Positions 39,815 through 61,375 of a stretch of DNA of 64,000 bases are shown piece by piece; within the stretch, counting starts at the first letter, position 1; the number at the start of each line of letters is the position of its first letter. This DNA comes from Eubacteriales bacterium (GTDB lineage: Bacteria > Bacillota > Clostridia > Oscillospirales > CAG-272), in assembly GCA_045580085.1 (NCBI GenBank), contig JAZNND010000018.1:1783-65782 (forward strand), written 5' to 3'. Position numbers and translations under genes: made by a program. Under the pieces are notes generated by a model, which saw only the letters and a program-made list of their open reading frames with translations, was not told the DNA's origin and did not search any database.

Positions 39815-39836
39815 TTTTTGCTTATTTCTATAAAAT

Positions 39837-39880
39837 AAAAACCTGCCCTTTGGCTTTTGGCTTTCGGGCAGGTTTTTATT
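39837..39880. terminator. Bidirectional rho-independent terminator (left border of island)
   Basis: AAAACCTGCCC...GGGCAGGTTTTT. An A-run lies 5' and a T-run 3' of the stem. Confidence 0.8.
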
Positions 39881-39892
39881 TTAAATGTAAAT

Positions 39893-40378
39893 TTAAGTTT
39901 TCAAATCATTGATTTGTAAAAGAGATTTTTCGTCTACAATTACCACAAGTGTTTTTTCATATTGGGTGAGCACACCCATTTGAATCATGGTATAAAAACC
40001 TTTTTTCTCTTTGATGGCAGAAAAGAAGAGGGGGGAATCTTTTTTTCTCTCTTCTACGGCTTGGTTCATATCAATGCCGTCCTCGTCTTTCACGTGGCGC
40101 AAAAGAAAGTTTATTTGTTGGGAGGAAAGATTCTCGGCTAAATCAATGATTTCTTGCTCCGAGAGTGATTTTTGGGAAAGCGGGGGAGCAAGAAAGGCGC
40201 GGTCAAAGGAAAGATTGCTCTCCTCCTCTACCCAACCGCGCGTGACGGCGTAGCGAAGCATTTCCGTGGCTTCCTCAAAAGGAATGCCGTAAATATGTTG
40301 CAACAGTGGGGTAGAAACATACGGATATTTTTGGTACACTTCGCACAGTATTTGATGAAATTCATGGATGGTTTTCAT
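39893..40378 (-). CDS. Small hypothetical protein, N-terminal winged-helix resembling FtsK-gamma (tentative)
   Basis: YPYVSTPLLQHIYGIPFEEATEMLRYAVTRGWVEE resembles the FtsK gamma-domain pattern (ST..LQR...IGY.RA.R.....E..G.V). Last gene of the minus operon. Confidence 0.35.
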   Translation of the reverse strand: MKTIHEFHQILCEVYQKYPYVSTPLLQHIYGIPFEEATEMLRYAVTRGWVEEESNLSFDRAFLAPPLSQKSLSEQEIIDLAENLSSQQINFLLRHVKDEDGIDMNQAVEERKKDSPLFFSAIKEKKGFYTMIQMGVLTQYEKTLVVIVDEKSLLQINDLKT

Positions 40379-40432
40379 AGGTGTACCTTTCTGAATGGTT
40401 GATTCCCTTGGAAATGAACCCCTATTTGGTGT

Positions 40433-42178
40433 TTATCTTGCCCAAGAGAGATCGTATTTATAGCGCGCGTCCGAAAAATCAACGGGTGCTTTGCGGAATG
40501 CCGCGTTGTCACCTTGGTAAAACTCGGGGCAAAGATAGCTTCTCTCGGCAAAGGAGAGAAGAACATCGCCGCGCATTTGGGTGACGAAAAATTCTCCGAT
40601 GGCAAGCTTACCGAGCTTGCTGACGGGCACCAAAGGAACCTCAACCGATTGATAGTTTTCGATTTGGCCCGATCTGCCGTTGAGGGCGGAAAGGGGAGAG
40701 AGCACGGTGTGTCTGCCGCATTCCTTGGAAAAGGCTTCCTTCGTTTCATGGTTGTTGGAGCCGAAATAAAGGTGCATGTTGAGGTTGTCGATGATAATTT
40801 CCGCCGTCTCTTTGCCGTATACGCGATAGAGCTGGGCGTAAGACTGCACCACAAGCATAAACCAGATGTTTCGGCTTCCGCATGCCGAGATGACGTTTTC
40901 GAAGCTCGAAAATTTCGGGAAGTTACCGAACTCATCCAGCAAGAAATAGAAGGGGCGTTCGAGTCTGCCGTCTTTCTTACGCGCCGAGTCGATCAATCCG
41001 AGATAAAGATCGGAGAAGAAGAGGCTTATGACTTGATAGTGAAGCGCGTCCTCATCCTTATAGGAAACGTAAATGACCGTCGGACGCTCGTCATCCGCCA
41101 AAGAAGGGATATCGAAGGTGTTCGCGCAGGTCAAACGGCTGACGCATGCATCCTTAAAGGGTTTCATTTTGGCGAGGAAGGAAGAAATGATACAGCTTCT
41201 CGTGACGTTGGCGGAAAGCTTGACGATGCTGGTCTCCACCAAACGGCGTGCCTTGGAGGTGTTGATGTTGCGCCCCACGAAATAATCGTGGTCGTCGAGT
41301 TCGTTGTTCGAGGATGTGAAGGAGGCGAAAATAGCGGAAACCGTTTCAAAGGAATAAGTATCCTCCGTGATCAAAGGTCTGCCGCCGCGATCGGCTTTGG
41401 GATCGCTGTCCTCAAGCATTGCCCAAAGGAAGCCCTCAAGCATGGTTGCCGCCATTTGTTCCCAATAAGGATCGCTGTCTTTCAAAACGGGGCAAACTGC
41501 CTCGCCGATGGAGATGATGGCGTTATCCACCTCGGTATAAAGCGCGTCGCGCACCTCATCGATGGCGCGTGTAAGAGCCGGGCGGCTGTTGTAGCGTTCG
41601 CCGCGGAATACGTGGAAATAGCTGCCGTTTTCCTCTTCGGTCTTGACTTCTTTGGAGACGTTCAGGTATTCTTGGTACTTGCGGTAAATCTTAGTCAACG
41701 GATTCCAACAGTCCGAACGCAGATAATTGATAAAATCGAGTACGATCACGCGATAGCCGTTGTCCTCAAAGGTTTTGTGCGTGCCGCGGTAGAGCTCACC
41801 CTTGGGATCGCTGAGCACGATGGAGGGTTTGTTTTTCTTTAGCGGCATCAGGTTGAGGAAGGGAAGCACGAAACCGGTGCTTTTGCCCGAGCGCGTCGCG
41901 CCCACAACGAGGGCGTGAATATCATCCGTAAAGGTGGCGCAAAGCTCGCCTTCCGTGTTACGCTTGACGCAAATGGGAAAACCATTGATCTCTTTGCCCT
42001 TAAGCTCGGAATAACGGTAGGTGCGCTCGGCGTTTTTGATCTGGTAATCGTTTGCCGTGATCAGCTTCGCGTTTTCCTGGTCCTCATAAAGCGGCACGTA
42101 ATTGCCGAGCACCGTTACAAAATCCTGTTCCTTTTTGGGCGTTTTATCGACGTATTGATTTAAAAGTTTATTTAACAT
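40433..42178 (-). CDS. VirD4/TraG/TraD-type (type IV coupling protein-like) P-loop ATPase without TM segments
   Basis: ATG 42178 lies 8 nt after GGAGG and overlaps the upstream stop by 11 nt. Walker A VVGATRSGKST. Walker B YFLLDEFGNFPKF followed by FMLVVQSYAQLYRVYG. No hydrophobic helix in the first 100 aa. Confidence 0.75.
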   Translation of the reverse strand: MLNKLLNQYVDKTPKKEQDFVTVLGNYVPLYEDQENAKLITANDYQIKNAERTYRYSELKGKEINGFPICVKRNTEGELCATFTDDIHALVVGATRSGKSTGFVLPFLNLMPLKKNKPSIVLSDPKGELYRGTHKTFEDNGYRVIVLDFINYLRSDCWNPLTKIYRKYQEYLNVSKEVKTEEENGSYFHVFRGERYNSRPALTRAIDEVRDALYTEVDNAIISIGEAVCPVLKDSDPYWEQMAATMLEGFLWAMLEDSDPKADRGGRPLITEDTYSFETVSAIFASFTSSNNELDDHDYFVGRNINTSKARRLVETSIVKLSANVTRSCIISSFLAKMKPFKDACVSRLTCANTFDIPSLADDERPTVIYVSYKDEDALHYQVISLFFSDLYLGLIDSARKKDGRLERPFYFLLDEFGNFPKFSSFENVISACGSRNIWFMLVVQSYAQLYRVYGKETAEIIIDNLNMHLYFGSNNHETKEAFSKECGRHTVLSPLSALNGRSGQIENYQSVEVPLVPVSKLGKLAIGEFFVTQMRGDVLLSFAERSYLCPEFYQGDNAAFRKAPVDFSDARYKYDLSWAR

Positions 42179-43772
42179 TGCCAAAGCCTCCCCATATACC
42201 GATCTTGGTTTCCGAGCTCTTCGCTGTGTCCTCAAGCATCTTTTCCGTGATAACAAAGCGGTCCTCGCCCGCACGGTGCGCGAGCAGAGCATGCTCGATC
42301 ATTTGTTCCGCCGCGCTTGCCGTTTGTTTCAGCAAAAGCTTGCGCGCGGCAGCGTTCAGTTCTACGGCACTTAAGGAGAAGAAACGCGCGGTGTCCGTGA
42401 GAATCTTATCAAGTGCCGCTTCGGCTTCCGATTCCTTGATGCTTTCCAAGATAACCGTATCCGAAATGAGGGTAAGCTTATGATCGGGTTTTTCATGCGC
42501 AAGCATCACCGTGACAACGTTTCCGAGGTCCAGCGTGTAGCCGGAGGCGGTGACGTAACGCTTTGCCGTATCGCTTTTGAGGATGGTGGAGAGAGACATA
42601 ACCTCATTTTCGCCGAGTGCTTCGCATTTTTCAAAAAAGAGCAGGGGCGCGTTTTCTCCGATGCCGTCCAAGGTGCGTAATACCGCATCCTCTAAATGAA
42701 TGCCGCCGTGCCCGGAAAGGTCGATGGAGCCGTGGCCGCGTTCGCTGTAAGCGCGGATGATGCGGTCCTTATATTCACGCAGCATCACATCGTCCTTGGC
42801 GATCAGCAAAAGCGGGCGTTTGCGCGCCGAAAGGCGGTAAAGCAGGTTGTTTTCGATCAAGCTTTCCTCTCTTTCGCGTACAAAAGTACCGGTCGGAAGC
42901 TTTTTGGCGCAAAGCGGAACGCTTTGCTTGGTGATACCGAGGGGCAGGTTGCGGGGGTATTGCTTGGGATCGGTGAGAATCAGCTCACGCTTGGAGTCCT
43001 CGGTCAAAACGGTGGAGTCAATGATGGAGAGCGTGCTGGCGGTCAAAGAGGCGCGGTCAAGCACCTTTCTTTCGAAGGCATCCTCCAAAGCTTCCACCAC
43101 AGGGGAAGTTTGCACGGCGGGAAGCTCGTAGACGGTTTGCAAATATGTATATACCTCTTTTTCGCCGCGGTGCGAGAGCATCGAGCAAAGGCGAACGGCA
43201 CACTCTTCTTTTTTCTCGGGGAAATGGGAGATGGCAAGAAGGATCGCCATGGGAGAGTTCCAGCGCACGGCATTCCAAAGCTTGGCTTCGCTCTCTTCCT
43301 GTTCGGTTTCGGAGAGAAAGCCCTCCAAGGAGAGAAACGCCAGCAAATCGGAGGCGGCGATATGCCCTTCGGCACCGGCTTTTTCGAGACTGTAAAGCGT
43401 ATAGGTGATCTCAAAGGGCGAGTCCTTCTCAAAAATAGGATCGCGCTTGAGAATGGCTTGCTGTTTGAAGGAAAGAATGCCCGAAAGGGTAGAGGTGATG
43501 CCGTCGTAAAGCTCGGCGCAGCGCAAAAGGCGGTTCATGTCCTCTCCCGTAATGGCACTTCTGGCAAGATCGTGCTCGGCGGCGGTGAAGCAGGCATCAA
43601 GAAAATCCTCTTCGGTTACGGTAAATAAGCGCGCGTAGCGGTCAAAAACCTCGCGTCTGCCTTCACGCGTCAGCGAGACACCGACCGTTGCGTCAAAGAA
43701 AAAGTATTCGTATAAGAATTCGCGCTTTAAAAATTCAGGTGTTTTTTCCGCGCGGATGTTTCGTTGTTTCAT
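42168..43772 (-). CDS. Hypothetical 534-aa protein, translationally coupled to the T4CP-like ATPase
   Basis: Long ORF with coding-like composition. No Walker motifs or other signature recognised. Confidence 0.5.
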   Translation of the reverse strand: MKQRNIRAEKTPEFLKREFLYEYFFFDATVGVSLTREGRREVFDRYARLFTVTEEDFLDACFTAAEHDLARSAITGEDMNRLLRCAELYDGITSTLSGILSFKQQAILKRDPIFEKDSPFEITYTLYSLEKAGAEGHIAASDLLAFLSLEGFLSETEQEESEAKLWNAVRWNSPMAILLAISHFPEKKEECAVRLCSMLSHRGEKEVYTYLQTVYELPAVQTSPVVEALEDAFERKVLDRASLTASTLSIIDSTVLTEDSKRELILTDPKQYPRNLPLGITKQSVPLCAKKLPTGTFVREREESLIENNLLYRLSARKRPLLLIAKDDVMLREYKDRIIRAYSERGHGSIDLSGHGGIHLEDAVLRTLDGIGENAPLLFFEKCEALGENEVMSLSTILKSDTAKRYVTASGYTLDLGNVVTVMLAHEKPDHKLTLISDTVILESIKESEAEAALDKILTDTARFFSLSAVELNAAARKLLLKQTASAAEQMIEHALLAHRAGEDRFVITEKMLEDTAKSSETKIGIWGGFGNVK

Positions 43773-43816
43773 TGGCGTTAATTCCTTTCGTTTTAGGATG
43801 TTATGTAAACAATGGT

Positions 43817-44419
43817 TTACGAATTTTCATATTTTGAGATGTCATACGCCTTCGGATTGGCATCAATCACACGGTCAATCAAACCGTAGGCGCAGGCATC
43901 GGCGGCACTCATGCGGTTGTCGCGGTCGGTGTCGATGCGGATGGTTTCAATGGGTTTGTCGGTGTTGCGGGAGAGAATGGTGTTGAGCTGTTCTCTCGTG
44001 CGGCGAATGCTTTCGGCGTAATTGAGAATATCGCTTGCCTGCCCTTGGGTGCCGCCGAGGGGCTGATGGATGAGCACCTCGCTGTTGGGAAGTGCCTCAC
44101 GCTTGCCGCGCGTTCCGGAGGAAAGGAGAAACGCGCCCATGCTCGCCGCCATACCCATGCAGACGGTGCGGATATCCGCTTCCACCAAATTCATGGTGTC
44201 GTAGATGGCAAGCCCTGCCGAAACCGATCCGCCGGGGGAATTGATGAACATGGTGATCTCGCGCTGTTCTCTCGGAATACCGTCCTTTTTAAAGCGGTAA
44301 TCAAGGAATAAGAGCTGTTTGATGATGAGATTGGCTACCTCGTCATCGATGGGCCCGAGCAGGGTAATGATATTGTTTTCCACAAAAAAGCTTTCGGAAA
44401 GTTTTTCGGACGTTTTCAT
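43817..44419 (-). CDS. clpP: ClpP-family serine protease paralogue (S14)
   Basis: INSPGGSVSAGLAIYDTM, catalytic Ser in GMAASMGAFLL, His in LIHQPLGG and Asp region DTDRDNRMSA. The N-terminal axial-loop segment is not recognisable. Confidence 0.85.
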   Translation of the reverse strand: MKTSEKLSESFFVENNIITLLGPIDDEVANLIIKQLLFLDYRFKKDGIPREQREITMFINSPGGSVSAGLAIYDTMNLVEADIRTVCMGMAASMGAFLLSSGTRGKREALPNSEVLIHQPLGGTQGQASDILNYAESIRRTREQLNTILSRNTDKPIETIRIDTDRDNRMSAADACAYGLIDRVIDANPKAYDISKYENS

Positions 44420-44451
44420 GGTTGTATCTCCTTTGTTCTTTTTACATTTTA

Positions 44452-44481
44452 ATTATACAGCAAAAATAAGGTTTTTGGCAA
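44452..44481 (-). promoter_or_regulatory. Candidate internal promoter for clpP and downstream genes (TTGCCA-18-TATAAT on minus strand)
   Basis: Minus-strand TTGCCA = 44476-44481. TATAAT = 44452-44457. Confidence 0.5.
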
Positions 44482-44516
44482 GAAAAACAGATTATTTTTC
44501 CGACTTTTGTTTTTTT

Positions 44517-44538
44517 ATTTTTCAAGTTTTCTTGAAAA
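44517..44538. promoter_or_regulatory. 22-nt element ATTTTTCAAGTTTTCTTGAAAA (palindrome TTTTCAAG-N4-CTTGAAAA), copy 1
   Basis: Identical over all 22 nt to 52835-52856. It lies just downstream of the Doc-like stop and about 75 nt upstream of the clpP -10. Confidence 0.8.
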
Positions 44539-44550
44539 CGGTAAGCAAAC

Positions 44551-44916
44551 TTACCTCGCGTTGCTTTCAAGCCATTCGCCCAAGGCGAAAATCCCCTCCT
44601 CCGTGGGTGAAAAAGAGAGCATCTCTTTGGTGTTTTGTTCGGTAGGGGGCAGGCTTAAGCCGTTGAGTTCAAGCAGTGTCAAGGCGCAAAGCACCGCCAT
44701 GGCACGGTTATGGGTGGCAAAGGGCTTTTTTTCCGCGATGTCCGCGCACAGTTTTGCGGCGCGCAAAAACACGGTGCGGTAGTAAAGATGCTCTCCGTCC
44801 TTGGTGGACCATGCGGCGGAAAAAATATCCTTCAAAAGAGAAAGATTTGTTTTTCCCGACTGCCCGTGCAACGTTTCGTATAAAGAGGCGGCTTGCAAAT
44901 AGGTGATCTTGTTCAT
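44551..44916 (-). CDS. Degenerate Doc/Fic-fold protein (death-on-curing-like, catalytic motif substituted)
   Basis: VFLRAAKLCADIAEKKPFATHNRAMAVLCALTLLELNGLSL aligns by eye with Doc ...ATARGHIFNDANKRTALNSALLFLRRNGV. KPFATHNRA replaces HIFNDANKR. Confidence 0.45.
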   Translation of the reverse strand: MNKITYLQAASLYETLHGQSGKTNLSLLKDIFSAAWSTKDGEHLYYRTVFLRAAKLCADIAEKKPFATHNRAMAVLCALTLLELNGLSLPPTEQNTKEMLSFSPTEEGIFALGEWLESNAR

Positions 44917-44926
44917 AGGCTTTCCC

Positions 44927-47035
44927 TTAATTCAGTTTTTTAAGATAGCCGTCGGCGTTTTCGTAGACCGAGGCGGCGGTTGCGGCAAAAATATCGTTGC
45001 GAATGACCGTTTCGGCGCACAGCGCGTCTCCCGATAAAAGCTTTTCAAAATAGCGGATGAGCGCATCGCGGCTCTTATTTGTTTCCACATCCGCAAACCA
45101 ACCGAGGCGCGCACGCGGCAGCGGCGGCGCGTTGCCGCCTGCGGTATAAACAACCGAAACGCTGTCGCCTGCTTGTAGTTTATGCGAGAAGGGAACCTCC
45201 TTGCCGTTGACCGAGATGCGGTAGGTTGTGAGTGCCGCTTTGGAGCTGACAGCGAAGGAAAGATCGAGTGCCGTCGCACCGACGGGAAGGCTGTATACAT
45301 CCCCCGCATCGGTCGTCACACGGATCATTTTTCTTTCGTCAAGCAAAACGGAAGAATCCGAAAGCGACTCGCCGAAGCGCGCGTACATGTAGCTTTTTAA
45401 GGTGGTGACGAAAAGCTCCACGCGGTTTTCGTAGGCATCGGCAAACAGCAAGCGGTACTGACCGAGGGGGCTGTCATAGCGGATGTCCTCGATCAAAAAG
45501 GCGGGGGAAAGCTCCGCGGCGTAGGCATCCATAAACAGACGCATGAATTTGCCGATGTTCTCTTCGGGAGAGTCGGTTTTGGGTGTCAGAATAAGATAGA
45601 GCTTTTTTAACATCACCGTGCGCTTAGTGATGGGTGTTTCGTAGCTCTTGCGCTCACTTTCGGTAAATCCCATGCGCTCAAAATACGCCTCTTTGGCAAA
45701 GGAGGAACGCTCCTTGTAGGCATCGAGGATTTCGATGAGCTCTTTTACGGAATAGTCCGCCGTGCGGTAATCCACCGAAAAGCCGTGTCCGCGCAGAGCT
45801 CCCACCGCCGTCTTTAACGCGTCAAAAAACGAGGTAAATTCAATGCTGTTGCGGTGCACGAGCTTGCGGTAAGCATTGTGAATGGCGTGGTAACGGGTGG
45901 GTTCTTCGATTTTTAGAATCTCGCTTTCGATGGCGTAGGAAAGATCCTCTAATCGGAAGGATCGGAAAAGGGGCAGGTAGATTTCTTTGGTTTGGCTTAT
46001 CTTGGTATACTTGGCGGTGCGGTCGAGCGCGTCAAGCGTGCGCAGGTTAACCAATCGGTCCGCCGCCTTGATATAGAGCCCTGCGATCAGGCTCGGACGG
46101 GATTCGATGCTTTGCCTTAAAGCGTCGGCATAGATTTTTTCAAGCTCCCCCTCCGCGCCCGATGTGATGATTTCTCTGCCCGAAAGGGGCGAGATATCGC
46201 TTTTCATGGAGCTGATGTGGGTAACAGCTCCCACATAATCACGGATGTTTTCGGTAAAATCACGCCCAACGTCCGAAAGGGTGTAATCGGTTTGCTCAAT
46301 GGTGTCGTGCAAAAGTGCGGCGGCAAGGGTTTCGGCGTTAACCTTGTATCCGAGCAGTAAAAGCGCGACCGACAGCGGATGGAAAATATAAGGCTCGCCG
46401 GAGCGACGCTTGACGTCGCCGTGCAAAGCAAGCACTTTTTCATAAGCATGCTTGACGTGAACGGCGTTTTCACCGCCGAGTTCGGAGCGCACATGGCGCG
46501 TCAGATGTTCGAAAAGCCGTTCCGCCGCATGGCGAAAAATGCGGTTGTCGATGCGCTCACAGCATTCTTCGCAAGTGCTTGCGGATTTTTCGGCTCCAAA
46601 GAGCTCCGCCATGCCGCTTCCGTACGCTTCTTCGAGATCCTCTTTGCTCAGCGTATAGCGGAAGGTGCCCGCAGGAGCTTCGCACAAGGGCAAAAGCAGA
46701 GCCGCCGCGATCTCTTCAAAGGTGCCATAGGCGCGCGTGGCGATGAGAAATGCCATTTGTGCGCGGTAAACGGAATACGGTACGGGATGCGCCGCGAGGC
46801 TTGGCGCGTACATGCGCTCTTTGGGTACGGTTTTGTCGGTATAATATTCTTCGAGAGAGGCGAAAAGGGAAGCGAGTGCCTCACGCTTGCGCGCGATATC
46901 GGTGCTGACGTGAAAAATATCCTCTGCGTGCTCGGCATGCTCGGTCAAGCGCGTAAATTCGTTTTCGGTGAAGGCGGCGAGAATTCTTTCCTCATACTCC
47001 GCCCGATCTTCGGACAAAAAATAGGATTGTGGCAT
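44927..47035 (-). CDS. Rel/SpoT-homologue-like protein: intact-looking HD hydrolase domain, degenerate synthetase-like region, TGS domain, novel N-terminus
   Basis: RRSGEPYIFHPLSVALLL...AALLHDTIEQT...KAADRLVNLRTL (HD domain). TGS: IRVTTDAGDVYSLPVGATALDLSFAV...ISVNGKEVPFSHKLQAGDSVSVVYT. The synthetase EVQIRT motif reads ELFVTT. Confidence 0.7.
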   Translation of the reverse strand: MPQSYFLSEDRAEYEERILAAFTENEFTRLTEHAEHAEDIFHVSTDIARKREALASLFASLEEYYTDKTVPKERMYAPSLAAHPVPYSVYRAQMAFLIATRAYGTFEEIAAALLLPLCEAPAGTFRYTLSKEDLEEAYGSGMAELFGAEKSASTCEECCERIDNRIFRHAAERLFEHLTRHVRSELGGENAVHVKHAYEKVLALHGDVKRRSGEPYIFHPLSVALLLLGYKVNAETLAAALLHDTIEQTDYTLSDVGRDFTENIRDYVGAVTHISSMKSDISPLSGREIITSGAEGELEKIYADALRQSIESRPSLIAGLYIKAADRLVNLRTLDALDRTAKYTKISQTKEIYLPLFRSFRLEDLSYAIESEILKIEEPTRYHAIHNAYRKLVHRNSIEFTSFFDALKTAVGALRGHGFSVDYRTADYSVKELIEILDAYKERSSFAKEAYFERMGFTESERKSYETPITKRTVMLKKLYLILTPKTDSPEENIGKFMRLFMDAYAAELSPAFLIEDIRYDSPLGQYRLLFADAYENRVELFVTTLKSYMYARFGESLSDSSVLLDERKMIRVTTDAGDVYSLPVGATALDLSFAVSSKAALTTYRISVNGKEVPFSHKLQAGDSVSVVYTAGGNAPPLPRARLGWFADVETNKSRDALIRYFEKLLSGDALCAETVIRNDIFAATAASVYENADGYLKKLN

Positions 47036-47047
47036 TTTATCACCCCG

Positions 47048-48154
47048 TTAAACGTCGCTCCGGATGTGATTTCGGAGCATGTGATAAATGTTTTGGTATT
47101 CCTCATTGGTGGCGTCTAAGCGGAAATGGCTGAAGGCAACCTGCGAGAGGGCGTTTTTGTAAAGCTTCATGATACGGTGCACCAAAATGCCGTCGGTGTC
47201 CTCCTCCGCGAGTCCCGCACCGGTGAGCTTGTCACGCATATCGCGATAAGAAGCAACCGCATCGGAGAGCTCATTCTCTAAGTCTGGGATCACAAAATCC
47301 ACATCAAGATACCGCGCGATGCGCTCATCACTGCGTTCAAGAATACCCCTTGCCACAATGACCTCTTGCGCCGTCGGACAGCTTTTGGAGCCGCGCGAGA
47401 TGGATGCCATAAGCCCAAGGCCGCCGATGTAGACGGATTCGCGATTGCTCGGGCGCACCAAGTACAGCGTTACGTAATCGAGGCAGGGCTCGTTTTCCAA
47501 AGTGATGGCGAAATAATCATCCTTTAATAAATGCACCTCACCCACGTAGAGATTTTTGAGATTCTCTCCGAGGAAGGTGTCGTGGAAGAGCATGTCGGAG
47601 CTGCGGTACTGTTCTCTGAGATCCTGCAAAGCCTCAAAGGATTTGAGCTTGGAGTAAAAGGCGAGTGCTTTATCCTTTTCCTTAAAAGGGGCGGCGTATA
47701 CCGCAGGGCGCGAGGCGAGAATGCCGTCGGCGTCATACCGCGGCAAAACCGAAAGCACAATGTAGCGCAATCCGCGCGCCAAGGATGCCTCGGGAGAAGG
47801 ATCGGTGCGAGAGGTGTCGTAGGCGTACATAAAGTAATTGCCGAGGATGTTTTTGTGGTCCTCCGCTACTTCATAATACTGTTCCTTATCCACCGCCATG
47901 ACCGTAGAATAAAACTGATCGAGCGAAAAATTGCGCAAAGGATGGCTCGGATGCAAGCGTATAAGGCTCTCGCGGAGCGTCAGAATGCGGTCCACGGGCG
48001 GTACGGCACTGCCGCTTTCCCAAGAACGGAGCGTTTGGTGAGAGACGCCTGCCTCCTCGGCAAACACCGCGATGCTGACGGGGGGATCGATGGCTTCTCG
48101 AATGGTTTTTAGGTTTAAGCTGGTATAGGGAGCAATATCAAAAGTGCTTGCCAT
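47048..48154 (-). CDS. XRE-family HTH protein with about 290-aa uncharacterised C-terminal domain (first gene of minus operon)
   Basis: VSIAVFAEEAGVSHQTLRSWESGSAVPPVDRILTLRESL is a Cro/C1-type HTH. The rest is unassigned. Confidence 0.6.
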   Translation of the reverse strand: MASTFDIAPYTSLNLKTIREAIDPPVSIAVFAEEAGVSHQTLRSWESGSAVPPVDRILTLRESLIRLHPSHPLRNFSLDQFYSTVMAVDKEQYYEVAEDHKNILGNYFMYAYDTSRTDPSPEASLARGLRYIVLSVLPRYDADGILASRPAVYAAPFKEKDKALAFYSKLKSFEALQDLREQYRSSDMLFHDTFLGENLKNLYVGEVHLLKDDYFAITLENEPCLDYVTLYLVRPSNRESVYIGGLGLMASISRGSKSCPTAQEVIVARGILERSDERIARYLDVDFVIPDLENELSDAVASYRDMRDKLTGAGLAEEDTDGILVHRIMKLYKNALSQVAFSHFRLDATNEEYQNIYHMLRNHIRSDV

Positions 48155-48205: not shown

Positions 48206-48234
48206 ATTATAACAGTCAATCGGATGTTTGTCAA
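48206..48234 (-). promoter_or_regulatory. Perfect consensus promoter for the minus operon (TTGACA-17-TATAAT)
   Basis: Minus-strand TTGACA = 48229-48234, 17-nt spacer, TATAAT = 48206-48211. About 50 nt upstream of the ATG at 48154. Confidence 0.7.
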
Positions 48235-48347
48235 GGCGTTTTTTCAAGAAAATTATAAAAATCAAGCTTTTTTAAACATTAAGAGATCTAAAGCTCGTCT
48301 CTGAAAAGAAAAACAAAAGGAAAAATCGTCTTTTTCTCCCAAGTCTC

Positions 48348-48376
48348 TTGACAAGTAAGGAATGCGGTGATATAAT
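48348..48376 (+). promoter_or_regulatory. Perfect consensus promoter, plus strand (TTGACA-17-TATAAT), distal P1
   Basis: TTGACA 48348-48353. TATAAT 48371-48376. The CTTGAAAA half-site at 48380-48387 overlaps the expected transcription start. Confidence 0.65.
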
Positions 48377-48572
48377 TTTCTTGAAAAACGATAATTTTTA
48401 TTTACCTAATCAATTTTTGCTGTTGGAAAAAGAAGGTGAAAAAGGCAAAAAAACCGCCGCTTTTCCCTTATATAATAAAAAGGAAGAAAATTGATTTCAA
48501 AAAAATTTGATAACAGTAAAGAAAAATTACCTTCTTTTCAAGTCTTTTTACTTAAATTAAAGCAAACGGTGA

Positions 48573-48601
48573 TTGCACTCGGTGCATAAGCGGAGTACAA
48601 T
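48573..48601 (+). promoter_or_regulatory. Candidate proximal promoter P2 for the Ubl operon (TTGCAC-17-TACAAT)
   Basis: TTGCAC 48573-48578. TACAAT 48596-48601. About 30 nt upstream of the JAB ATG. Confidence 0.5.
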
Positions 48602-48630
48602 AAGTACAGTAAAAGGAAAGGAGCTATGCG

Positions 48631-49245
48631 ATGGAAGAGATCAAGGAAACCGCAGAGCCGCAAGAACAAGAGCTTTTGGTGCCTTCCGCGGGGATCCGTG
48701 TCACACGCATACGGCGGTATGAGCCGACCTACACCGAGGACGAAACCCTCTTGCCCGAAGGGGACGGCGATCACCAACTGCTGTTTACGCCGCATGCGGC
48801 GGAGCTTTTACGGGGCTTAACCGATTGGGGAACCGAAAGCGAGCGTAATGTGATCGAACAGCAAGGCATCATGCTCGGAAAAGTATACCGCACGCCGCGC
48901 GGCTTTACAGGTGTGGTGGAAGAGCTTGTGCTTTCTTCCGCTGTCGGAAACGCGGTTTACGTCGAGTCCTCTCACAGCGAGTGGAGCGAGATGGATCGCC
49001 GCATGGACGAGTTGAACGAACAAAGAGAAGAAAAACTCGTCAAGGTTGGTTGGTGGCACACCCATCCCAATATGTCGATCTTCATGTCGGGCACCGATCG
49101 CCGCACGCAAGCCGATTATTTTTATCAGCCTTGGCAGTTTGCCGCCGTTTTTAATCCCCAGGCCGAGCTTTGGGGAGCCTACATCGGAGAATGCGCCCAA
49201 GCCTGCACGGGCAAATGGATCACGGAAGGAACCGAAACAGAATGA
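48631..49245 (+). CDS. JAB/MPN (JAMM) metallopeptidase, deubiquitinase-like
   Basis: ATG 48631 lies 8-9 nt after AAAGGAG. JAMM motif GWWHTHPNMSIFMSGTD with an upstream Glu (VIEQQG). Confidence 0.85.
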   Translation: MEEIKETAEPQEQELLVPSAGIRVTRIRRYEPTYTEDETLLPEGDGDHQLLFTPHAAELLRGLTDWGTESERNVIEQQGIMLGKVYRTPRGFTGVVEELVLSSAVGNAVYVESSHSEWSEMDRRMDELNEQREEKLVKVGWWHTHPNMSIFMSGTDRRTQADYFYQPWQFAAVFNPQAELWGAYIGECAQACTGKWITEGTETE

Positions 49246-49760
49246 CAGAAACAAGAAAAAGACGTCTCGCGAACGACTACCGCGAGCTTTGCAGTATGAA
49301 AGGGCCGATCATGGATTTTCGCCCTCTGGTGGGTACACCGCCCTATGTCGAGCAGTATGAGCTGACCTTTCATATCCGCAGTATCATCGGTCCCGAACCC
49401 TCCTACCGCAGTGTGCATGTGGTGCGTTTGGCACTGCCTGCCGGCTATCCTCTGGACGGTTTTCCGCAGGTGACCATGGTCACGCGCCCCTTTGTGTACC
49501 ACCCCAACTGGTTCCGCAACGGCAACTGGTGCTTCGGCGGTGCTTCCAAGCACACCGAGGGCTTAGGCAATTTTGTGGTGCGTCTGATGCAGACTTTGCA
49601 ATACTGCGAGAGCATCATCAACGTCGGCAGTCCCGCCAACGGAGACGCCACCAGCTGGTATTTGCGCTATAAGCGCAGCGGCATTTTCCCTACCGACACC
49701 CAAAAGCTGCCCCAACCCAACATCGGCGGCATCATCATCAACAAAAGAAACGATCAATAA
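49242..49760 (+). CDS. E2 ubiquitin-conjugating-enzyme-like protein
   Basis: ATGA overlap with the JAB gene. N-terminal RLANDYRELCS. HPN motif followed by a Cys (FVYHPNWFRNGNWCFGG). Confidence 0.75.
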   Translation: MTETRKRRLANDYRELCSMKGPIMDFRPLVGTPPYVEQYELTFHIRSIIGPEPSYRSVHVVRLALPAGYPLDGFPQVTMVTRPFVYHPNWFRNGNWCFGGASKHTEGLGNFVVRLMQTLQYCESIINVGSPANGDATSWYLRYKRSGIFPTDTQKLPQPNIGGIIINKRNDQ

Positions 49761-49781
49761 TTTATTTTAAGGAGAACGATT

Positions 49782-50060
49782 ATGAACCTTCATCTTACTT
49801 TTATGCATCATTCCGACAACAGCTCCATCGACGTTACCATTGAGGACAACTGGAGTGCCAACTACGCCATCGAAGAACTCATCCGCGAAAACTTCCTCAA
49901 GCCCCTCGGCGATGCCGAAGAATACCGTCTCGTCTACAAAGAAGACCAAACCGAGTTTGGCGGCTCTACCACCTTTGCGCAAGCAGGTGTGCAAGACGGA
50001 AAGGTAATATCCGTCGTCGTCCGTCCTAAAGCGGGCTTCGGTGGGGCTATTTTGGCGTAA
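49782..50060 (+). CDS. Ubiquitin-like (beta-grasp) protein with internal di-Gly and 4-residue C-terminal tail (…GFGG-AILA)
   Basis: 92 aa. Position between E2 and E1. Ends ...VISVVVRPKAGFGGAILA. RBS AAGGAG 7 nt upstream. Confidence 0.65.
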   Translation: MNLHLTFMHHSDNSSIDVTIEDNWSANYAIEELIRENFLKPLGDAEEYRLVYKEDQTEFGGSTTFAQAGVQDGKVISVVVRPKAGFGGAILA

Positions 50061-50107
50061 AGAGCCGTTCGCTCCCCTCGCAGTAGATATCTACAGCTTC
50101 AGGTCGC

Positions 50108-50164
50108 GAACGACACTTTCCATCCAAAATCCCCCACACCGAAGGAACTTTTAAAAGAAACTTT
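50108..50164. repeat. 57-bp direct repeat, copy 1 (inverted partial copy of the Ubl gene 3' end)
   Basis: 56/57 identical to 50179-50235. Its 5' part (50106-50143) is about 77% complementary to 50037-50072. Confidence 0.9.
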
Positions 50165-50178
50165 GCCGAAGGGAAAAA

Positions 50179-50235
50179 GAACGACGCTTTCCATCCAAAA
50201 TCCCCCACACCGAAGGAACTTTTAAAAGAAACTTT
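50179..50235. repeat. 57-bp direct repeat, copy 2
   Basis: 56/57 identical to copy 1. Period 71 bp. Confidence 0.9.
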
Positions 50236-50277
50236 TAAAATGCAAAGTTAAAAACCGAGCAAAACAAAGGAGGCACT

Positions 50278-51579
50278 ATGCCTATCATCATTCATAAACG
50301 GACAGATGCGGACGGCAAGACCGTGGAGGCATCGGAAATCAAAGCACCCATAGACGAAAAGAACGATCCTTTTGCCAGACAAAAGCTGGTTTCTTGGTGG
50401 GATCAGGATAAGATCTCCAAGGCGCGCGTGCTGGTGATGGGGGCGGGTGCCATCGGCAACGAGACCTTAAAAAATTTGGCGTTGCTCGGCTTCAAGCATC
50501 TTTTTATCTGCGATATGGATACCATAGAGCTCTCCAATCTCAGCCGCACGCTCCTTTTTCGCCCGTCGGATGAGGGCAAGGAAAAAGCCGCGGTAGCGGC
50601 GGAGCGTGTGCGTGAGATGTGCCTTGCACCCGACGCGCGCGTGGATTATTTTACGGCGGACGTGATGTTCGGGCTCGGCATCGGCATTTTCCGTTATTTT
50701 GATCTGATTCTCGGTTGCCTTGACAACGATGCCACGCGTTTTTACATCGACCGTTGCGCTACGGTGTTCGGCAAACCTTGGATCAATGCGGGTATATCCA
50801 ATCTGCAAGTGGGATTGCAAGCCTTTTTTTGCGATCAAAACGACGTTTGCTTTCATTGCGGTATGGATGAAGATGTCATCACGCGCGTGATGAGCCGCAA
50901 GGCGTCTTGCGGTAAGACCGTGATCAGCGATCTTTCCGGCGGCAAGGTGCCGACGGTGCAGGTGGCAAGTGCCATCGTTTCGGGCATGCAGACGCAAGAA
51001 GCGGTCAAGTATCTTTCGGGCAAGCAGGTCGCCTTCGGTCAGAATTATTATTTTGAGGGCGTGGGCAATTCCTTCACTGTCTCACGCAACCGCCCCGACA
51101 GCAACTGCCGCCACCATTTGTTCCCGCGCATTCGCGAGGTGAAGGAGCTATATGATATCACAAACGCTTCCACTCTGCGTGAGCTTTTGGAAGCGGCATC
51201 CAAGGCAATCGGGCGCGAGGTAACACTCGATCTTTCGGAAGAATCGGGGCGCGATTTTATCACCCACGCCGATTGCATTTACTGCGGCGCGTCGGTTCCC
51301 ATCGGTTTGCCCCGTTTCCGCTTCCGCGAGGAAATGGCGGTATGCCAAGCATGCCGCACGTCTGCCCCCGATGTTTTCCCGAGCGAGCCTTGGGTTTATC
51401 CCGTATCGGAATACAGTCTTCAAAGCGACGAGTCGCTTTTATCCATGCCCTTATCCTCTCTCGGTATTCCGCCGCTGCATGTGATGCGTGTTTTTGACAG
51501 TGAAGAGAATGTTTATTATATCGAGACTTCGGGTGATTTACCCCTCATTTGCCCCGAAAATTACGGAAAATGCAAATAA
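50278..51579 (+). CDS. E1-like ThiF/MoeB-family activating enzyme
   Basis: VLVMGAGAIGNETLKNLALLG, ICDMDTIELSNLSRT, and CxxC pairs (CFHC, CIYC...CQAC). RBS AAGGAGG. Confidence 0.85.
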   Translation: MPIIIHKRTDADGKTVEASEIKAPIDEKNDPFARQKLVSWWDQDKISKARVLVMGAGAIGNETLKNLALLGFKHLFICDMDTIELSNLSRTLLFRPSDEGKEKAAVAAERVREMCLAPDARVDYFTADVMFGLGIGIFRYFDLILGCLDNDATRFYIDRCATVFGKPWINAGISNLQVGLQAFFCDQNDVCFHCGMDEDVITRVMSRKASCGKTVISDLSGGKVPTVQVASAIVSGMQTQEAVKYLSGKQVAFGQNYYFEGVGNSFTVSRNRPDSNCRHHLFPRIREVKELYDITNASTLRELLEAASKAIGREVTLDLSEESGRDFITHADCIYCGASVPIGLPRFRFREEMAVCQACRTSAPDVFPSEPWVYPVSEYSLQSDESLLSMPLSSLGIPPLHVMRVFDSEENVYYIETSGDLPLICPENYGKCK

Positions 51580-51624
51580 TACTTTGCATTATTCCTGCTT
51601 TTATAGAAAGGAAAAGTCATAAAC

Positions 51625-52143
51625 ATGGCTGATACCGAATTTGAACTTGACGAATCCAAGCGATGGTTTGTGGAGCTTGGTCGCATCGATCCCATGACGC
51701 GTGAGGCGTTTGCGATGGGAGACCGTGTGATTATATGCCGTTCTTGCAAGATTGTTCACAAGGACTATACCTGGAAGGACAACGGCGGCTGTTGCTCGCC
51801 CGGATGCAACTGCAAGACGAGCGCCAAGCGATTTTTGGCACCGCCCTCTTCCGCCACGCCTGCCTCGCCGACACCTGCGCCGCGCATGGTGGTGCGCGGC
51901 AACCGAACGCCGCCCGAGAATCACGGCCGCATTCAGATTCGTGCGCGGACGGGTGCGGACGGCATTCGCATTGAATCGGCACCGCCTCCCGTGCCGTCGC
52001 CCATTGCGCCGCGCCGTTCGCGCAGCCGAACAGTGACACCGCCTGCGGATGCGGGGCAAAACCGCCGTATCGTGCTCGGCAACGCCGCGCCGCCCGAGCA
52101 TCGCACACCCATCATCATTCGTTCGAGGCATGACGATGACTGA
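51625..52143 (+). CDS. Hypothetical protein: N-terminal Cys-rich Zn-ribbon-like module plus Pro/Arg-rich tail with an internal repeat
   Basis: CRSC-x14-CCSPGCNC. Repeats RMVVRGNRTPPENHGRIQIR and RRIVLGNAAPPEHRTPIIIR. This frame links the flanking genes; other ORFs here are by-products of high GC. Confidence 0.5.
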   Translation: MADTEFELDESKRWFVELGRIDPMTREAFAMGDRVIICRSCKIVHKDYTWKDNGGCCSPGCNCKTSAKRFLAPPSSATPASPTPAPRMVVRGNRTPPENHGRIQIRARTGADGIRIESAPPPVPSPIAPRRSRSRTVTPPADAGQNRRIVLGNAAPPEHRTPIIIRSRHDDD

Positions 52144-52825
52144 CCTTTCGGTGTATTATAAAAACGCGCTGGCACCCTCCGAGCGTCGGACCTACGATGC
52201 TCTTAAGGAGGGGCTTTTGGCGCATAAAAAGGAGATCGTTTGCCCTTTTTCTCCGCAATTCACCCGTGCCGTGCGCGCCATCAACTACGACTGCCCCGAG
52301 CTCTTTTATATCAACTGGGTGGAATCCTACCGCTGTGCGAGTGAAGGGGATCGCTTGATTTTTTCCTTTCCCTATCTTTATGAAAAAGAGCAAACCGCCG
52401 CTTTGCGGGCGGAGCTTTGCGCTTACGCGCGCGAGGTAGCGGGCATCAGCGTATACGGTAAGGTGCGCACCTTGCATGACAAACTGACTTCAAGCCTTTT
52501 ATATGACAGCGAAGGGCTTGCCGCCGCGATCCGTTCGCCCGCGATGTTCAGTGCCTTGGGGCCTTTGCGCCACCGCCGCGCGGTGTGCGAGGGAATCAGC
52601 AAATTTGCTTGCTTTGTGCTCAGGCGCATGGGGGTTTCTGCCGCCGTAGCCGTAGGTTCGCACGAGGGCGTAGGGCATGCATGGAATTTTTATCGCCATG
52701 AAAACGGCAGAGTAGCGTATACCGACATCACCTTTGACATTGCCTTCAAAAATACGCCTGCCGCCTATCGCTATTTTGATCTTGACCGAGCGCAAATGGC
52801 GTACGATCATCGGTTTGATTGTTAG
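52130..52825 (+). CDS. Transglutaminase-like (papain-fold) cysteine peptidase/transamidase
   Basis: Putative Cys-His-Asp triad in CEGISKFACFVLRRMGVSAAVAVG...GHAWNFY...YTDITFD. The ATG (52130 or 52136) overlaps the upstream ORF. Confidence 0.65.
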   Translation: MTMTDLSVYYKNALAPSERRTYDALKEGLLAHKKEIVCPFSPQFTRAVRAINYDCPELFYINWVESYRCASEGDRLIFSFPYLYEKEQTAALRAELCAYAREVAGISVYGKVRTLHDKLTSSLLYDSEGLAAAIRSPAMFSALGPLRHRRAVCEGISKFACFVLRRMGVSAAVAVGSHEGVGHAWNFYRHENGRVAYTDITFDIAFKNTPAAYRYFDLDRAQMAYDHRFDC

Positions 52826-52834: not shown

Positions 52835-52856
52835 ATTTTTCAAGTTTTCTTGAAAA
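52835..52856. promoter_or_regulatory. 22-nt element ATTTTTCAAGTTTTCTTGAAAA, copy 2
   Basis: Identical to 44517-44538. It lies 12 nt after the transglutaminase-like stop, about 76 nt upstream of a TACAAT (52920-52925) and about 100 nt upstream of the helicase ATG. Confidence 0.8.
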
Positions 52857-52953
52857 AATAATTTTGTAAATTTCGGAAAGTTTACCGTTTCCCCTCTTAA
52901 AAAAACGAGGAGAATGCGATACAATAGAGACAGAAAAGGAAAGGGGTGCCAAG

Positions 52954-55900
52954 ATGACCGTTCGAGATTATATTCTTTCACAAGTGAAGAAAACCAGAGA
53001 CACCATGCGAAGCGACAGCTTCAGCGATCTTTGCGGCTTGACGGTCGCTTTGCGCGGCAAGACGGTTTCTTCGGTTCTTTCCATCCTCTCCTCCTCTCTC
53101 AAAGCGGCGGTGGAGCTGGTGGATCCCGCACTGGTGACCTCGGGTGCCGCCGATTATGGGGCGGGAGAGATCGTCAGTGCCGCACACGCTTTCTGTGCGG
53201 ACGATCCCGTGGTATGGGTGGACGGCAAGATCTTTTTTGCCACGGAGGACGGCAGCTATTGCACCCCCGATGAATATCATTATCTGAAGGAAAACACCTT
53301 GGTGGAGCGCGCCGTGTTCGGCGCGTCGCGCCATCCGATCTACGGTCTTGCCGCCACCTTCAAACGTTTGATCCGCGCGGCTTCCGAAGCGCAGGCGGAT
53401 AAAGCCAAGGAGATTTTATACCTGACCGTCGGCTCGGCGCAGTGGACGGACAAGAAGAAAAGCACCAAGACGCGTATCCACAAGAGCCTCGCGCCGCTGT
53501 TTACCATGCATATCGAGCCTGCCGGAAAAGGCACGCTTGCCTTCCGCGCGACCGCGGCGGGGGTGTTTTTCCGCATCAATACCGTTTTTCGCCGCGATCT
53601 TATTGGGCAATACGAGGCGGATATTTACGAAGGGATTCCCGATGAACCCCTTTCTCCCGAGGCACTTCTCTCGGCATTGGAGCAGGTTTGCCGCCGCGCC
53701 GAGGAACTGCTCGGCGACCGTATACGCATGGATAAGGACGCGCTTTTCTTGACCTTGCTCGATTCTCAATACGAGGCGATCTGTCAAAAGATCGAGGCGA
53801 ATATCGACGCGCTCGCCGCCTCTCCCTTGGCTTGCCTTTTAGCGGGAGAAAAAAGCGGATTTCGGGCGCAAGAGCCGCAGGACGGGCTTAGTGTGATCTA
53901 CCCCTTGACGGCGGATGAAAGCCAAAGAGCCGTAATCGGTGCCTCCCTTTCGGGCAAAAGCGTGTTTGCCTCGGCTCCTGCCGGTACGGGTAAATCCCAA
54001 ACTGCTGTCAACATTGCCGCCAACACCGTTTTGCGCGGCGGAAATGTTTTCGTGCTCAGCGAAAAGCTTGCCGCGAACGATGTCTTTTTGCATTACAGCG
54101 AACGCATCGGGCTCTCGCCTTTTTGCCTGAGTGTTGACAATAAAATGAGCATCGACAGCCTCATCCGCGCCGTAGAGCGCGTGGCGGCACTTCCGTCCCG
54201 CTATGTCAAGAGCGATACGGCAAAGCTTGCCGTGGATGCCTATCACCGTTCTTGCGCCGCGTATGAACGCTTGAATGCCAAACTCTACTTTCCCATAGAA
54301 GAGCTCGGCGGCGTTTCTCTTTACGACTTGATCGCGCTCTCCTCCTCTTCGCCCGCGCTCTCCCACACCGAAGGGCTTTTCGCCGGCAAAGAGCAATACG
54401 AAAGCGCGCTTTCTCTCCTTTCGGAGCTTGAAGAGGGGCTTCTCTCCCAAATGACCGACGCGGAATTTGATGCCTACTTCTCTACGGGCGAAAGCGGCGA
54501 CGGCGAGCTGGATATGCTTTTAGGGCATTTATGCCAAAGAATGCTTGAAAAAGGGATAAATTGCAAAGAACTTTTTGCAAATAATCGACTTTCCCGTCAG
54601 AATGCCGTGCCCTCCGTTCGCGCGGAAATGGCAAGGGCGCAGGCTCTTTCCTACACCGAGATGTGGGGGCTTTCGGACACGGGCGAGAGATGTGTGCGCA
54701 AGATCTTCCGCGAGCTTTTGGAAAACGCCCTCAAAATGGAACAGCTGTATGCCGATCTTTTGACGCAAACGCTTTCTTTGCGTGCAAAACAGGCACCGAC
54801 GGCGAAACTGCTTTCTTTGCTCTCGGATGCCAAGAAAGCCAAAATTCCCGTGGGTGAATTTTTCAAACAAAACGCCGAAGCATTACGAGAGGTCTTTCCC
54901 GTGATCGTTTCCACCCCCATGCCCGCCGTCAACTATTTACACGGTACGGGGCTTGACCGCTTTACGGTCATGACGGTGGACGAGGCATCCCAAATGCCCA
55001 TCGTTGCCGTTTTGCCCTTCCTTGACCGTGTGGAGCGTTTGGTGGTGTTCGGCGACGAAAAACAGCTTGCCATCATCAACACCTTTGCCAAGGCGGAGAA
55101 AACCGTCTCCACCGATTACGACGAACGCGTTGCTGCCGCCAAAAACTCGGTGCTTGACGCGGTGCGCGGCAAGGAGAGCGAAGAGGGCTTCTTTGCGGGG
55201 GCACTTCGCTACCACTACCGTTCCAAAACCGAAATGCTGGTGCATGTTTCGAATGAAAGATGCTATAACGGCTCTTTGCAAGTCGTTCCCGACGTGGCGA
55301 CCTCAAGGCGTTATCTTGCGCCTTACATGGGGCTTTCTCTCATCGAGGTTGCCGACCGCGCCCATCCGCCCGTTTTGCTCCGCGACGGAGAGAACGTGAC
55401 CGAGGCGCAAGCCATCGTGCGCGACGTCGGAGAGATGAAACGGCAATATCCCGAACGCTCCGTGGGTATTATCACCCTCAATGAAAAACAGCAAAACCTG
55501 ATTTTGGACCGATTGGAGGAGGCGCATCTTGAGCCTTCCGCGGATCTTTGGGTGCGCTCGCTCGACAACGCGCAAGGAAAGGAAGCGGATTTCGTTTTTA
55601 TCAGCATCGCTCATGCCGAGCGCAAGGATAACGGGGAGCTTCGCCTTGCCGTTTCGACCTTCAACCGTGAGGGCGGAGAGAACCGACTCAACGTGCTTTT
55701 CACCCGTGCCGCTTACCGCGCCGCGGTTTACATTTCTTTTGATCACAAGGAGCTTTTGAAGAGCGACAACCCGCGCATCCGTCTGCTTTACGAGTATTTG
55801 CACTATGCGAAAGAAGGGGAACTCAACGAGCGTCCTTCTTTAAGCCTGCCGTCGGCGGACGAGGCGTTGGTTTCGGCGGTTTCGGGCATGGTTTCTTCGC

Positions 55901-56613: not shown

Positions 56614-56628
56614 AGAAAGGAGTTGCTT

Positions 56629-57960: not shown

Positions 57961-57978
57961 AAAGTGAGGAAATGAATC

Positions 57979-59007: not shown

Positions 59008-59042
59008 TTTGGGGCTTTTGCACAGAAAGGAATCTTAGATTT

Positions 59043-60450: not shown

Positions 60451-60451
60451 T

Positions 60452-61374: not shown

Positions 61375-61375
61375 T

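Follow-up and report, generated by a model that had tools for sequence, protein, structure and literature searches.

Bacterial operons for ubiquitin-like (Ubl) conjugation often come with a transcription factor of their own, such as CapW/BrxR or CapH together with CapP (PMC11601596). In these systems, a helix-turn-helix (HTH) regulator is encoded divergently from the Ubl or defence operon and is thought to silence it until a stress signal is received (PMC11601596). A similar layout is present in a 64,000-nt stretch of DNA from an Eubacteriales bacterium (contig JAZNND010000018.1; hereafter the window, meaning the whole stretch analysed), where a 368-aa XRE-family HTH protein is encoded divergently from a Bil-like Ubl conjugation operon. 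The pair belongs to a composite, defence-like island that combines this Bil-like module with a helicase/kinase/PP2C/ClpP/TraG-like system in a gut Clostridia-type genome, and the subject of our analysis is a 22-nt palindrome, ATTTTTCAAGTTTTCTTGAAAA, that stands in two identical copies at the ends of the module operons. Unlike the CapH+CapP and CapW systems, the locus has no CapP-type metallopeptidase and no WYL domain, the partner of the regulator is an HD_4+TGS protein, and the PADLOC and NCBIfam models miss the regulator.

The operators of Xre/Cro-CI regulators (lambda and 434 OR, PBSX Xre, ICEBs1 ImmR) offer a second point of comparison. As in those systems, the element described here is an inverted repeat rich in A/T whose half-sites are spaced by about one helical turn, graded copies surround divergent promoters beside the regulator gene with one copy over the -10/+1 region, and conservation is at the level of sequence. 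Two differences set it apart from them. The regulator is 368 aa long, with a large uncharacterised C-terminal part and a family of its own, and the two best putative operators are 4 kb away from its gene, at operon junctions and about 84 bp upstream of other promoters. From its sequence and distribution, we propose that the palindrome is a two-half-site operator for an island regulator, most likely the XRE-family protein, and estimate the probability of this reading at roughly 55%. The cis-element itself is conventional, and what it offers is a probe for a system that is otherwise uncharacterised. The palindrome is less unusual than its gene neighbourhood and the regulator family, and the XRE-HD/TGS-Bil-like module is previously undescribed.

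Two identical palindromes and their half-site

The 22-mer is exact at 44517-44538 (S1) and at 52835-52856 (S2), on the plus strand at both positions, in agreement with the original prediction. The two copies lie 8,318 bp apart and bracket the 8.3-kb module made up of the XRE gene, the HD/TGS gene and the Bil-like operon. Both contain the inverted repeat TTTTCAAG-N4-CTTGAAAA without a mismatch, and the half-site centres are 12 bp apart, a distance of about one helical turn as in a two-half-site operator. S1 is located between the stop of a 121-aa gene and the clpP promoter, its end 12 nt from the stop of that open reading frame (ORF; stop at 44551). S2 is located between the stop of the transglutaminase-like gene and the helicase promoter, and starts 9 nt past the TAG of that ORF (52823-52825), or 11 nt past it when counted to the inverted repeat. 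A distance of 12-13 nt from a stop codon, which had been given for both copies, is therefore accurate for S1 and too long for S2.

The occurrence of the palindrome is non-random and local. When up to three mismatches were allowed, three matches to the 22-mer were observed in the 64-kb window against 0.01 expected from dinucleotide shuffles, the third being a 19/22 match at 48241-48262 on the minus strand. The 12-mer core TTTTCTTGAAAA has four exact copies in the 64 kb, all in the three intergenic regions of the island (starting at 44527 and 52845 on the plus strand, and at 48376-48387 on the plus and 48241-48252 on the minus strand), and the remaining 55 kb of host sequence in the window, with its many promoters, gave no exact copy. 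For the half-site 8-mer CTTGAAAA, 17 occurrences were counted where 6.4 would be expected, and 7 of the 17 fall within 735 nt of island intergenic DNA. The conserved unit appears really to be the half-site CTTGAAAA with its T-rich spacer, rather than the whole 22-mer.

Searches beyond the window returned only scattered matches. A scan of 185,579 species genomes with the 20-mer gave 20 isolated hits in unrelated phyla, never two in one stretch, and the single hit in Clostridia falls inside a coding sequence. A 21-mer scan of the JGI metagenomes gave 18 isolated hits, and none of these loci encodes an island protein; we treat all hits outside the island as chance. Because the genome set apparently does not include the host species, the statement that the motif is island-specific refers to the 64-kb window. 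A generic repeat, present at many unrelated intergenic sites, had been named as the outcome that would speak against a regulatory element, and within this scope it was not seen: the window has no copies outside the island and none of the 185,579 species representatives has more than one. REP/BIME or miniature inverted-repeat transposable elements are likewise short, intergenic and past stop codons; here, only two full copies are present in 64 kb, which makes membership of that class less likely. A megablast search of the 8.6-kb module against plasmids gave no match.

Half-sites at the predicted divergent promoters beside the regulator gene

The XRE gene and the JAB operon are separated by a 476-bp divergent region, and it is here that further copies of the motif coincide with predicted promoters. 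Two predicted promoters that match the sigma-70 consensus at 12 of 12 positions stand back to back within 170 bp, and both hexamer pairs are invariant in the four islands that carry this region. The predicted XRE promoter, P_xre (TTGACA-17-TATAAT, 48206..48234, minus strand), and the distal JAB-ward promoter (TTGACA-17-TATAAT, 48348..48376, plus strand) both have a TG before the -10. A proximal JAB promoter candidate (TTGCAC-17-TACAAT, 48573..48601, plus strand) has a -10 that is invariant in the alignment and a leader that resembles that of the helicase gene. Similar consensus promoters flank the XRE homologs on two further contigs (L032 and L033).

The 19/22 copy, S3 (ATTTTTATAATTTTCTTGAAAA, 48241..48262, minus strand), is situated 6 nt upstream of the P_xre -35. 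Within it, TCTTGAA.AA is invariant in the four islands, so that conservation is limited to the right half-site. S4 (TATAATTTTCTTGAAAAA, 48371..48388, plus strand) has a half-site that begins at the last base of the JAB-ward -10, and TATAAT.TT.TTGAA is invariant across promoter and half-site in the four islands. Copies of the motif thus overlap (S4) or abut (S3) the predicted promoters of both the regulator gene and the divergent operon. S3 and S4 fall within an 18-nt perfect inverted repeat, TATAATTTTCTTGAAAAA, with arms at 48240-48257 and 48371-48388 that are 113 nt apart. Two weaker sites follow towards the JAB gene. S5 (48494..48513) is a degenerate palindrome that reads ATCAAATTTTTTTGAAAT on the minus strand and is nearly full in the related contig L003, as GTTTTTCAAGTTTTTTTGAAAT, and S6 (48535..48543) is a half-site standing alone, CTTTTCAAG, that precedes the proximal JAB promoter candidate. 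The degenerate copies and half-sites that had been noted in this region are therefore real, and can be better defined by the exact 12-mers at 48241-48252 and 48376-48387.

A second short motif, (GTA)AATTTACC, often in the form of a small palindrome GTAAR...YTTAC, accompanies several of these sites (44540-44555, 52866-52886 and 48399-48409). It follows the 12-mer by 1-21 nt, with constant polarity relative to it, at S1, S2 and S4 and in L001/L024.

Conservation in related islands

Close homologs of the XRE protein are rare, with only three among 5.8 billion proteins (92, 85 and 79% identity). Their contigs, L001, L002 and L003 (together with L024, which comes from the L003 sample), all show this island with an unchanged gene order, and each of the four islands that bear this XRE gene (the window, L001, L002 and L003/L024) also has the motif. 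Conservation in homologous islands had been suggested as a check, and the half-site is indeed kept in all four. L001 has retained both palindromes, with 0 and 1 mismatch, and the L024 ortholog of S2 is exact. In L002, S1 has one mismatch and a 4-nt spacer that is inverted relative to the window and L001, and S2 has lost its left arm (decayed to AAATCAAA) with CTTGAAAAA intact. In L003 (85% identical), the 121-aa gene is followed by clpP after 30 nt (4190-4260, corresponding to 44420-44550 of the window), and S1 and the clpP promoter are both missing; judged from this arrangement, clpP would be co-transcribed with the XRE operon there.

The pattern of conservation within the intergenic DNA points to the half-site. 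The most conserved intergenic blocks in the three related islands are the half-site and the promoter hexamers, the flanks having diverged. Few blocks reach invariance at 8 or more of 10 columns, and the half-site is one of them. In the divergent region, the segments invariant in all four islands are the P_xre half-site, the -35 and -10 of P_xre, the JAB-ward -10 with its half-site, and the start codon region.

Helicase homologs led to more distant forms of the system. The motif was not found in L029, L030 or L031, all of which have no XRE gene, and L025 (helicase 58% identical) has only a degenerate arrangement upstream of its helicase gene. Although the sample is small, presence of the motif tracks the regulator gene, and the palindrome travels with the XRE module. 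The same contigs inform on the two gene blocks that flank the module. In L029 (helicase 53% identical), clpP and the helicase gene point directly away from each other over a 242-bp gap, with neither the XRE/Bil module nor the palindrome between them. In L030 (40%), the genes for the helicase, kinase, Fe-S protein, PP2C, TraG-like protein and ClpP all run in one direction as a single cluster, and in L031 an HD_4 protein precedes the helicase. Because the clpP and helicase blocks are co-operonic in one relative and directly divergent in another, they belong together functionally, which gives independent support to the earlier claim that tied these blocks into one unit. A reading of the TraG-like gene as part of the conjugation machinery of an integrative and conjugative element was set aside, since TraG-like and ClpP proteins belong to the helicase/kinase system in L029 and L030; the gene is probably part of the conflict system and not of a conjugation apparatus.

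Constant spacing to the predicted downstream promoters

S1 and S2 each precede a promoter candidate for the next gene block. The clpP-block candidate is TTGCCA-18-TATAAT (44452..44481, minus strand), whose -10 is conserved in L001 and L002, and the helicase-block candidate is TTAAAA-17-TACAAT (52897..52925, plus strand), whose -10 is also conserved. We measured the spacing from the palindrome centre to the first base of the -10. For S1 it is 71.5 nt in the window, 72.5 in L001 and 73.5 in L002, and for S2 it is 73.5 nt in the window, L001 and L024 and 72.5 in L002. The spacing is therefore held at 71.5-73.5 nt across seven sites, two promoters and four lineages, even though the 61-63 nt in between have strongly diverged. 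The distance of 74-76 nt reported earlier for these -10 boxes describes the same geometry, as the 71.5 and 73.5 nt to the first base equal 74-76 nt to the -10 centre. If transcription starts about 7 nt past the -10, S1 and S2 would be centred near -84.

The constant spacing favours a coupling of the palindromes to the promoters downstream of them. The leaders of these promoters are themselves related. Those of clpP, the helicase gene and the proximal JAB promoter (44420-44452, 52920-52953 and 48596-48630, with L024 1601-1640) share TACAATA..ACAG.AAAGGAAAGG and AAAATGTAAAAAG, which suggests that promoter-leader cassettes may have been duplicated or exchanged inside the island. S1 and S2 were also considered as promoters in their own right, with TTGAAA as the -35. 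This was rejected, as no -10 is found at 16-18 nt on either strand.

A DNA word or another kind of element

The alternative that the original prediction had itself raised places the function of the palindrome in RNA, as a hairpin at the 3' ends of the module operons that might act as a weak terminator, a stabiliser or an RNase processing site and so keep the module transcripts apart from the blocks beyond. The position of both copies 9-12 nt past a stop codon at an operon end would suit such an element, as for Rho-independent terminators, which form a hairpin soon after the stop, and the hairpins of S1 and S2 (-6.0 and -7.4 kcal/mol) fold better than shuffled sequences (z of about -3.5 to -3.9). 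The S2 ortholog of L001 reaches -9.8 kcal/mol, and a T-run follows S2 in L001 and L002. The stems are weak, though, with only 2 G-C pairs among 8-9, and neither of the features of a Rho-independent terminator, a G+C-rich stem and a U-tract 3' of it, was found in the window. The sense strand at S1 continues with an A-run instead of a U-run (...CTTGAAAAATAAAAAAACAAAAG), that at S2 reads AATAATTTTG, the terminator scan reported neither S1 nor S2, and Rfam gave no match. The structure is also not what has been conserved. Across 15 aligned site instances, 76% of cells are paired, a value that 411 of 500 column shuffles at least equal, and one pair is altered on both sides versus 1.8 in shuffles, so compensatory changes are not enriched. 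The right half (T14 T15 G16 A17, A18 A19) is invariant or nearly so as the left arm varies through uncompensated changes, to the point that the L002 copy of S2 has a best fold of -1.5 kcal/mol of which the palindrome pairing is no part, yet keeps the right half-site. Furthermore, the same 12-mer is found at S3 and S4, where the hairpin cannot form, and the polarity of S1 and S2 is opposite relative to their transcripts, so that the RNAs would differ in loop and flanks. These observations indicate that the conserved feature is a DNA word and not a helix, and we regard the RNA-level explanation as unlikely. The operator is favoured over the hairpin because the sequence is conserved, half-sites lie on consensus promoters, the motif co-occurs with the XRE module and the spacing is constant; what does not stand from the original prediction is the whole 22-mer as the unit, since conservation resides in the half-site.

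Three further explanations keep the element at the DNA level and dispense with an island regulator. A rather unlikely one is that a host factor recognises it, whether the C-terminal domain of the RNA polymerase alpha subunit (alpha-CTD) through UP-element-like A/T tracts, region 4 of sigma through the -35-like CTTGAAA, or a global host regulator. S3 is indeed at roughly -40 to -60 of P_xre and matches the UP consensus (AAAWWTWTTTTnnAAAA) at 15 of 17 positions by inspection, and CTTGAAAA is one base off the invariant -35 blocks CTTGACAA. S1 and S2, near -84, are beyond the range of an UP element, the position and composition of S4 are not UP-like either, the TTGAAA of S1 and S2 has no -10 after it at 16-18 nt, and the motif is degenerate (L025) or absent (L029) in islands of related hosts that have no XRE module. 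For CodY, a 12/15 match to the box lies beside S2 at 52868-52882, which is at chance level and overlaps the (GTA)AATTTACC motif of S2; S1 and S2 themselves do not match the CodY consensus (AATTTTCWGAAAATT) at up to three mismatches. It is improbable that the two copies have no function and are recent paralogous duplicates of one promoter-region fragment. The similar clpP, helicase and JAB leaders would agree with duplication of fragments within the island, against which the flanks of the copies are near-random and the half-site is invariant in four lineages whose proteins differ by 8-34%. Very improbable is the idea that S1 and S2 are boundary repeats of a cassette, either att-like or duplication scars of a module inserted between the clpP and helicase blocks, or substrates for its deletion. 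They are direct repeats in the window and L001, the module between them is exactly the one that stands alone in L033 and L035 and is missing in L029, and the GTAAR...TTTACC motif follows the 12-mer with the same polarity at both. Recognised att or target-duplication repeats combine direct repeats with a recombinase and a copy at the empty site; here, the module encodes no recombinase, transposase or integrase and the 'empty' site of L029 has no palindrome copy. The L002 copies are not direct, one having an inverted spacer and one a decayed arm, L003 has the module and no S1, and both the central promoter copies and the constant -10 spacing would be left unexplained.

Several observations weigh against the operator reading as well. 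At S3 and S4 a single half-site is conserved, which is unusual for the operator of a dimeric XRE protein, and S3 equally suits the A/T-rich position of an UP element (about -40 to -60). Since CTTGAAAA resembles an extended -35 (CTTGACA), its conservation may be partly promoter-related. All of the promoters are predicted solely from matches to the consensus. From near -84, direct repression would have to act over a long distance, and the clpP and helicase promoters show no operator closer by; if S1 and S2 belong to paralogous promoter cassettes, as the shared AAAATGTAAAAAG would allow, their spacing may be partly inherited and not selected. The motif is carried by only four islands, all closely related. 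An AlphaFold2 model of the XRE protein built from 4 sequences had a pLDDT (predicted local distance difference test score) of 43 and was unusable, and among the sequencing runs searched, one gut-metagenome DNA run had 6% of the words and no RNA run was found. Finally, the XRE protein is a module component down to 27% identity and may be more than a transcription regulator.

A proposed regulon of the XRE-family protein

On the operator reading, the XRE protein would bind CTTGAAAA preceded by a T-tract at both divergent consensus promoters beside its gene. At the JAB-ward promoter, the half-site would cover the -10/+1 region and binding would lead to repression, which is the best-grounded step of the proposal because the site covers -10/+1. 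At the XRE promoter, where the half-site abuts the -35, binding would result in autoregulation. What the two full palindromes would do is less certain; they may serve as a regulatory site at -84, as a roadblock, or as both. S1 and S2 would be the first element that RNA polymerase meets past the last gene of each module operon. From this fixed position upstream, the bound regulator could determine how active the clpP-block and helicase-block promoters are and, in addition or instead, could serve as a roadblock to read-through that starts at the strong central promoters. In this way, the half-site would serve all promoters of the regulon, and four units would answer to one protein: the XRE-HD/TGS operon, the Bil-like Ubl operon, the ClpP/TraG-like block and the helicase/kinase/PP2C block.

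Auxiliary upstream operators and roadblocks, such as lac O3 near -82 and sites of CcpA, CodY and PurR, consist of far-upstream or intragenic palindromes that act by looping or by blocking elongation. S1 and S2 would resemble these in position; a difference is that the clpP and helicase promoters show no partner operator nearby, and the likeness is purely inferential. An insulator-plus-promoter unit would fit the arrangement because S1 and S2 stand directly past the last stop codon and because S1 and the promoter were lost jointly in L003. It is tempting to extend this, and we consider the extension doubtful, to a model in which the full palindromes are conditional insulators, such that bound XRE protein would block read-through from the two central promoters and keep both flanking blocks basal until its release, on a signal sensed by the XRE protein and its alarmone-hydrolase-like HD/TGS partner, fires all four units. 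If this were true, Ubl conjugation and the helicase/kinase/protease systems would be wired into one inducible immune regulon. Even in its simpler form, an operator of the XRE protein would provide a concrete handle on the switching of the composite island as one unit, and would give a first testable function to a family of HTH proteins of about 370 aa.

The XRE family and its module

An HMMER scan of 1.84 billion representatives places the regulator in a family of about 115 representatives, most of them about 370 aa long, whose members match HTH_3/HTH_31. The recognition-helix (HTH) region is invariant across the four orthologs, and the protein (47048..48154, minus strand; HTH_3 match) is the candidate binder, as no other HTH protein was found in the island and no other island product is recognisable as DNA-binding. 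No curated model in Pfam, NCBIfam or PADLOC matched it beyond the HTH, an exact lookup of the window protein found it not on record, and a sequence search of the PDB gave nothing significant. Relatives of the XRE protein were found in neither IMG/VR nor the JGI metagenomes, and relatives of the HD/TGS protein and of the 534-aa protein of the clpP block were not found in IMG/VR.

In the window, L032, L033 and L035, the XRE-family protein of about 370 aa is always followed by an HD_4+TGS (RelA/SpoT-hydrolase-like) protein and linked to JAB, E2-like, Ubl-like, E1 and transglutaminase-like genes. The gene for a 48% identical homolog (L032) is again divergent from a JAB gene, and the JAB-ward consensus promoter there is followed by CTTGAAAAG, the word also seen at S6. 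Homologs of 27-29% identity are again paired with HD_4/TGS and E1/JAB/transglutaminase genes, and in the equivalent region of the 27% homolog it is another word, GCGACAA, that is repeated. The XRE, HD/TGS and Ubl genes thus appear to form a conserved, autonomous Bil-like module down to 27% identity. On L035, a perfect 8-6-8 palindrome, CTTGACAA-ATTGAC-TTGTCAAG, is located at 7945-7966, just upstream of the start of the 29% XRE homolog; its half-site is one base off CTTGAAAA and identical to CTTGACAA, the -35 block that is invariant at the window promoters.

Gene content around the palindromes

Directly downstream of the XRE gene, the HD_4+TGS protein (702 aa) and the 121-aa protein, which is weakly Fic/Doc-like, are encoded at 44551..47035 on the minus strand. 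The Bil-like operon (48631..52825, plus strand) encodes JAB, E2-like, Ubl-like, ThiF/E1, 172-aa and transglutaminase-like proteins, of which the 196-aa E2-like and the 92-aa YukD/Ubl-like proteins were assigned from weak matches. Just upstream of the E1 gene, an intergenic segment at 50108-50235 holds two 57-nt copies that are 98% identical and 71 nt apart. Each has a small hairpin and a T-run on the minus strand, and the equivalent spacer of L001 is shorter.

The block downstream of S2 (52954..59969, plus strand) comprises a superfamily 1 (SF1) helicase (52954-56613, plus strand), a Ser/Thr kinase, a vWA/4Fe-4S protein and a PP2C phosphatase, and PADLOC returned only partial matches for this helicase/kinase system (PDC-S37/Hhe, PD-T4-6/mad6 and mad8). 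The block downstream of S1 (39893..44419, minus strand) comprises ClpP (43817-44419, minus strand), the 534-aa protein, the TraG/VirD4-like ATPase (40433-42292, minus strand) and a 161-aa protein. Between the 161-aa gene and a convergent gene for a BspA-like leucine-rich repeat protein, an 18-bp perfect inverted repeat (TAAAATAAAAACCTGCCC / GGGCAGGTTTTTATTTTA) at 39831-39883 is likely to terminate transcription in both directions and to mark the island's left edge. To the right of the island, the genes at 60272-62846 (NUDIX, 2-thiouracil desulfurase-like, LuxS and the next gene) match those past the PP2C gene in L025 (10020-12995), which suggests the same chromosomal neighbourhood in a related host.

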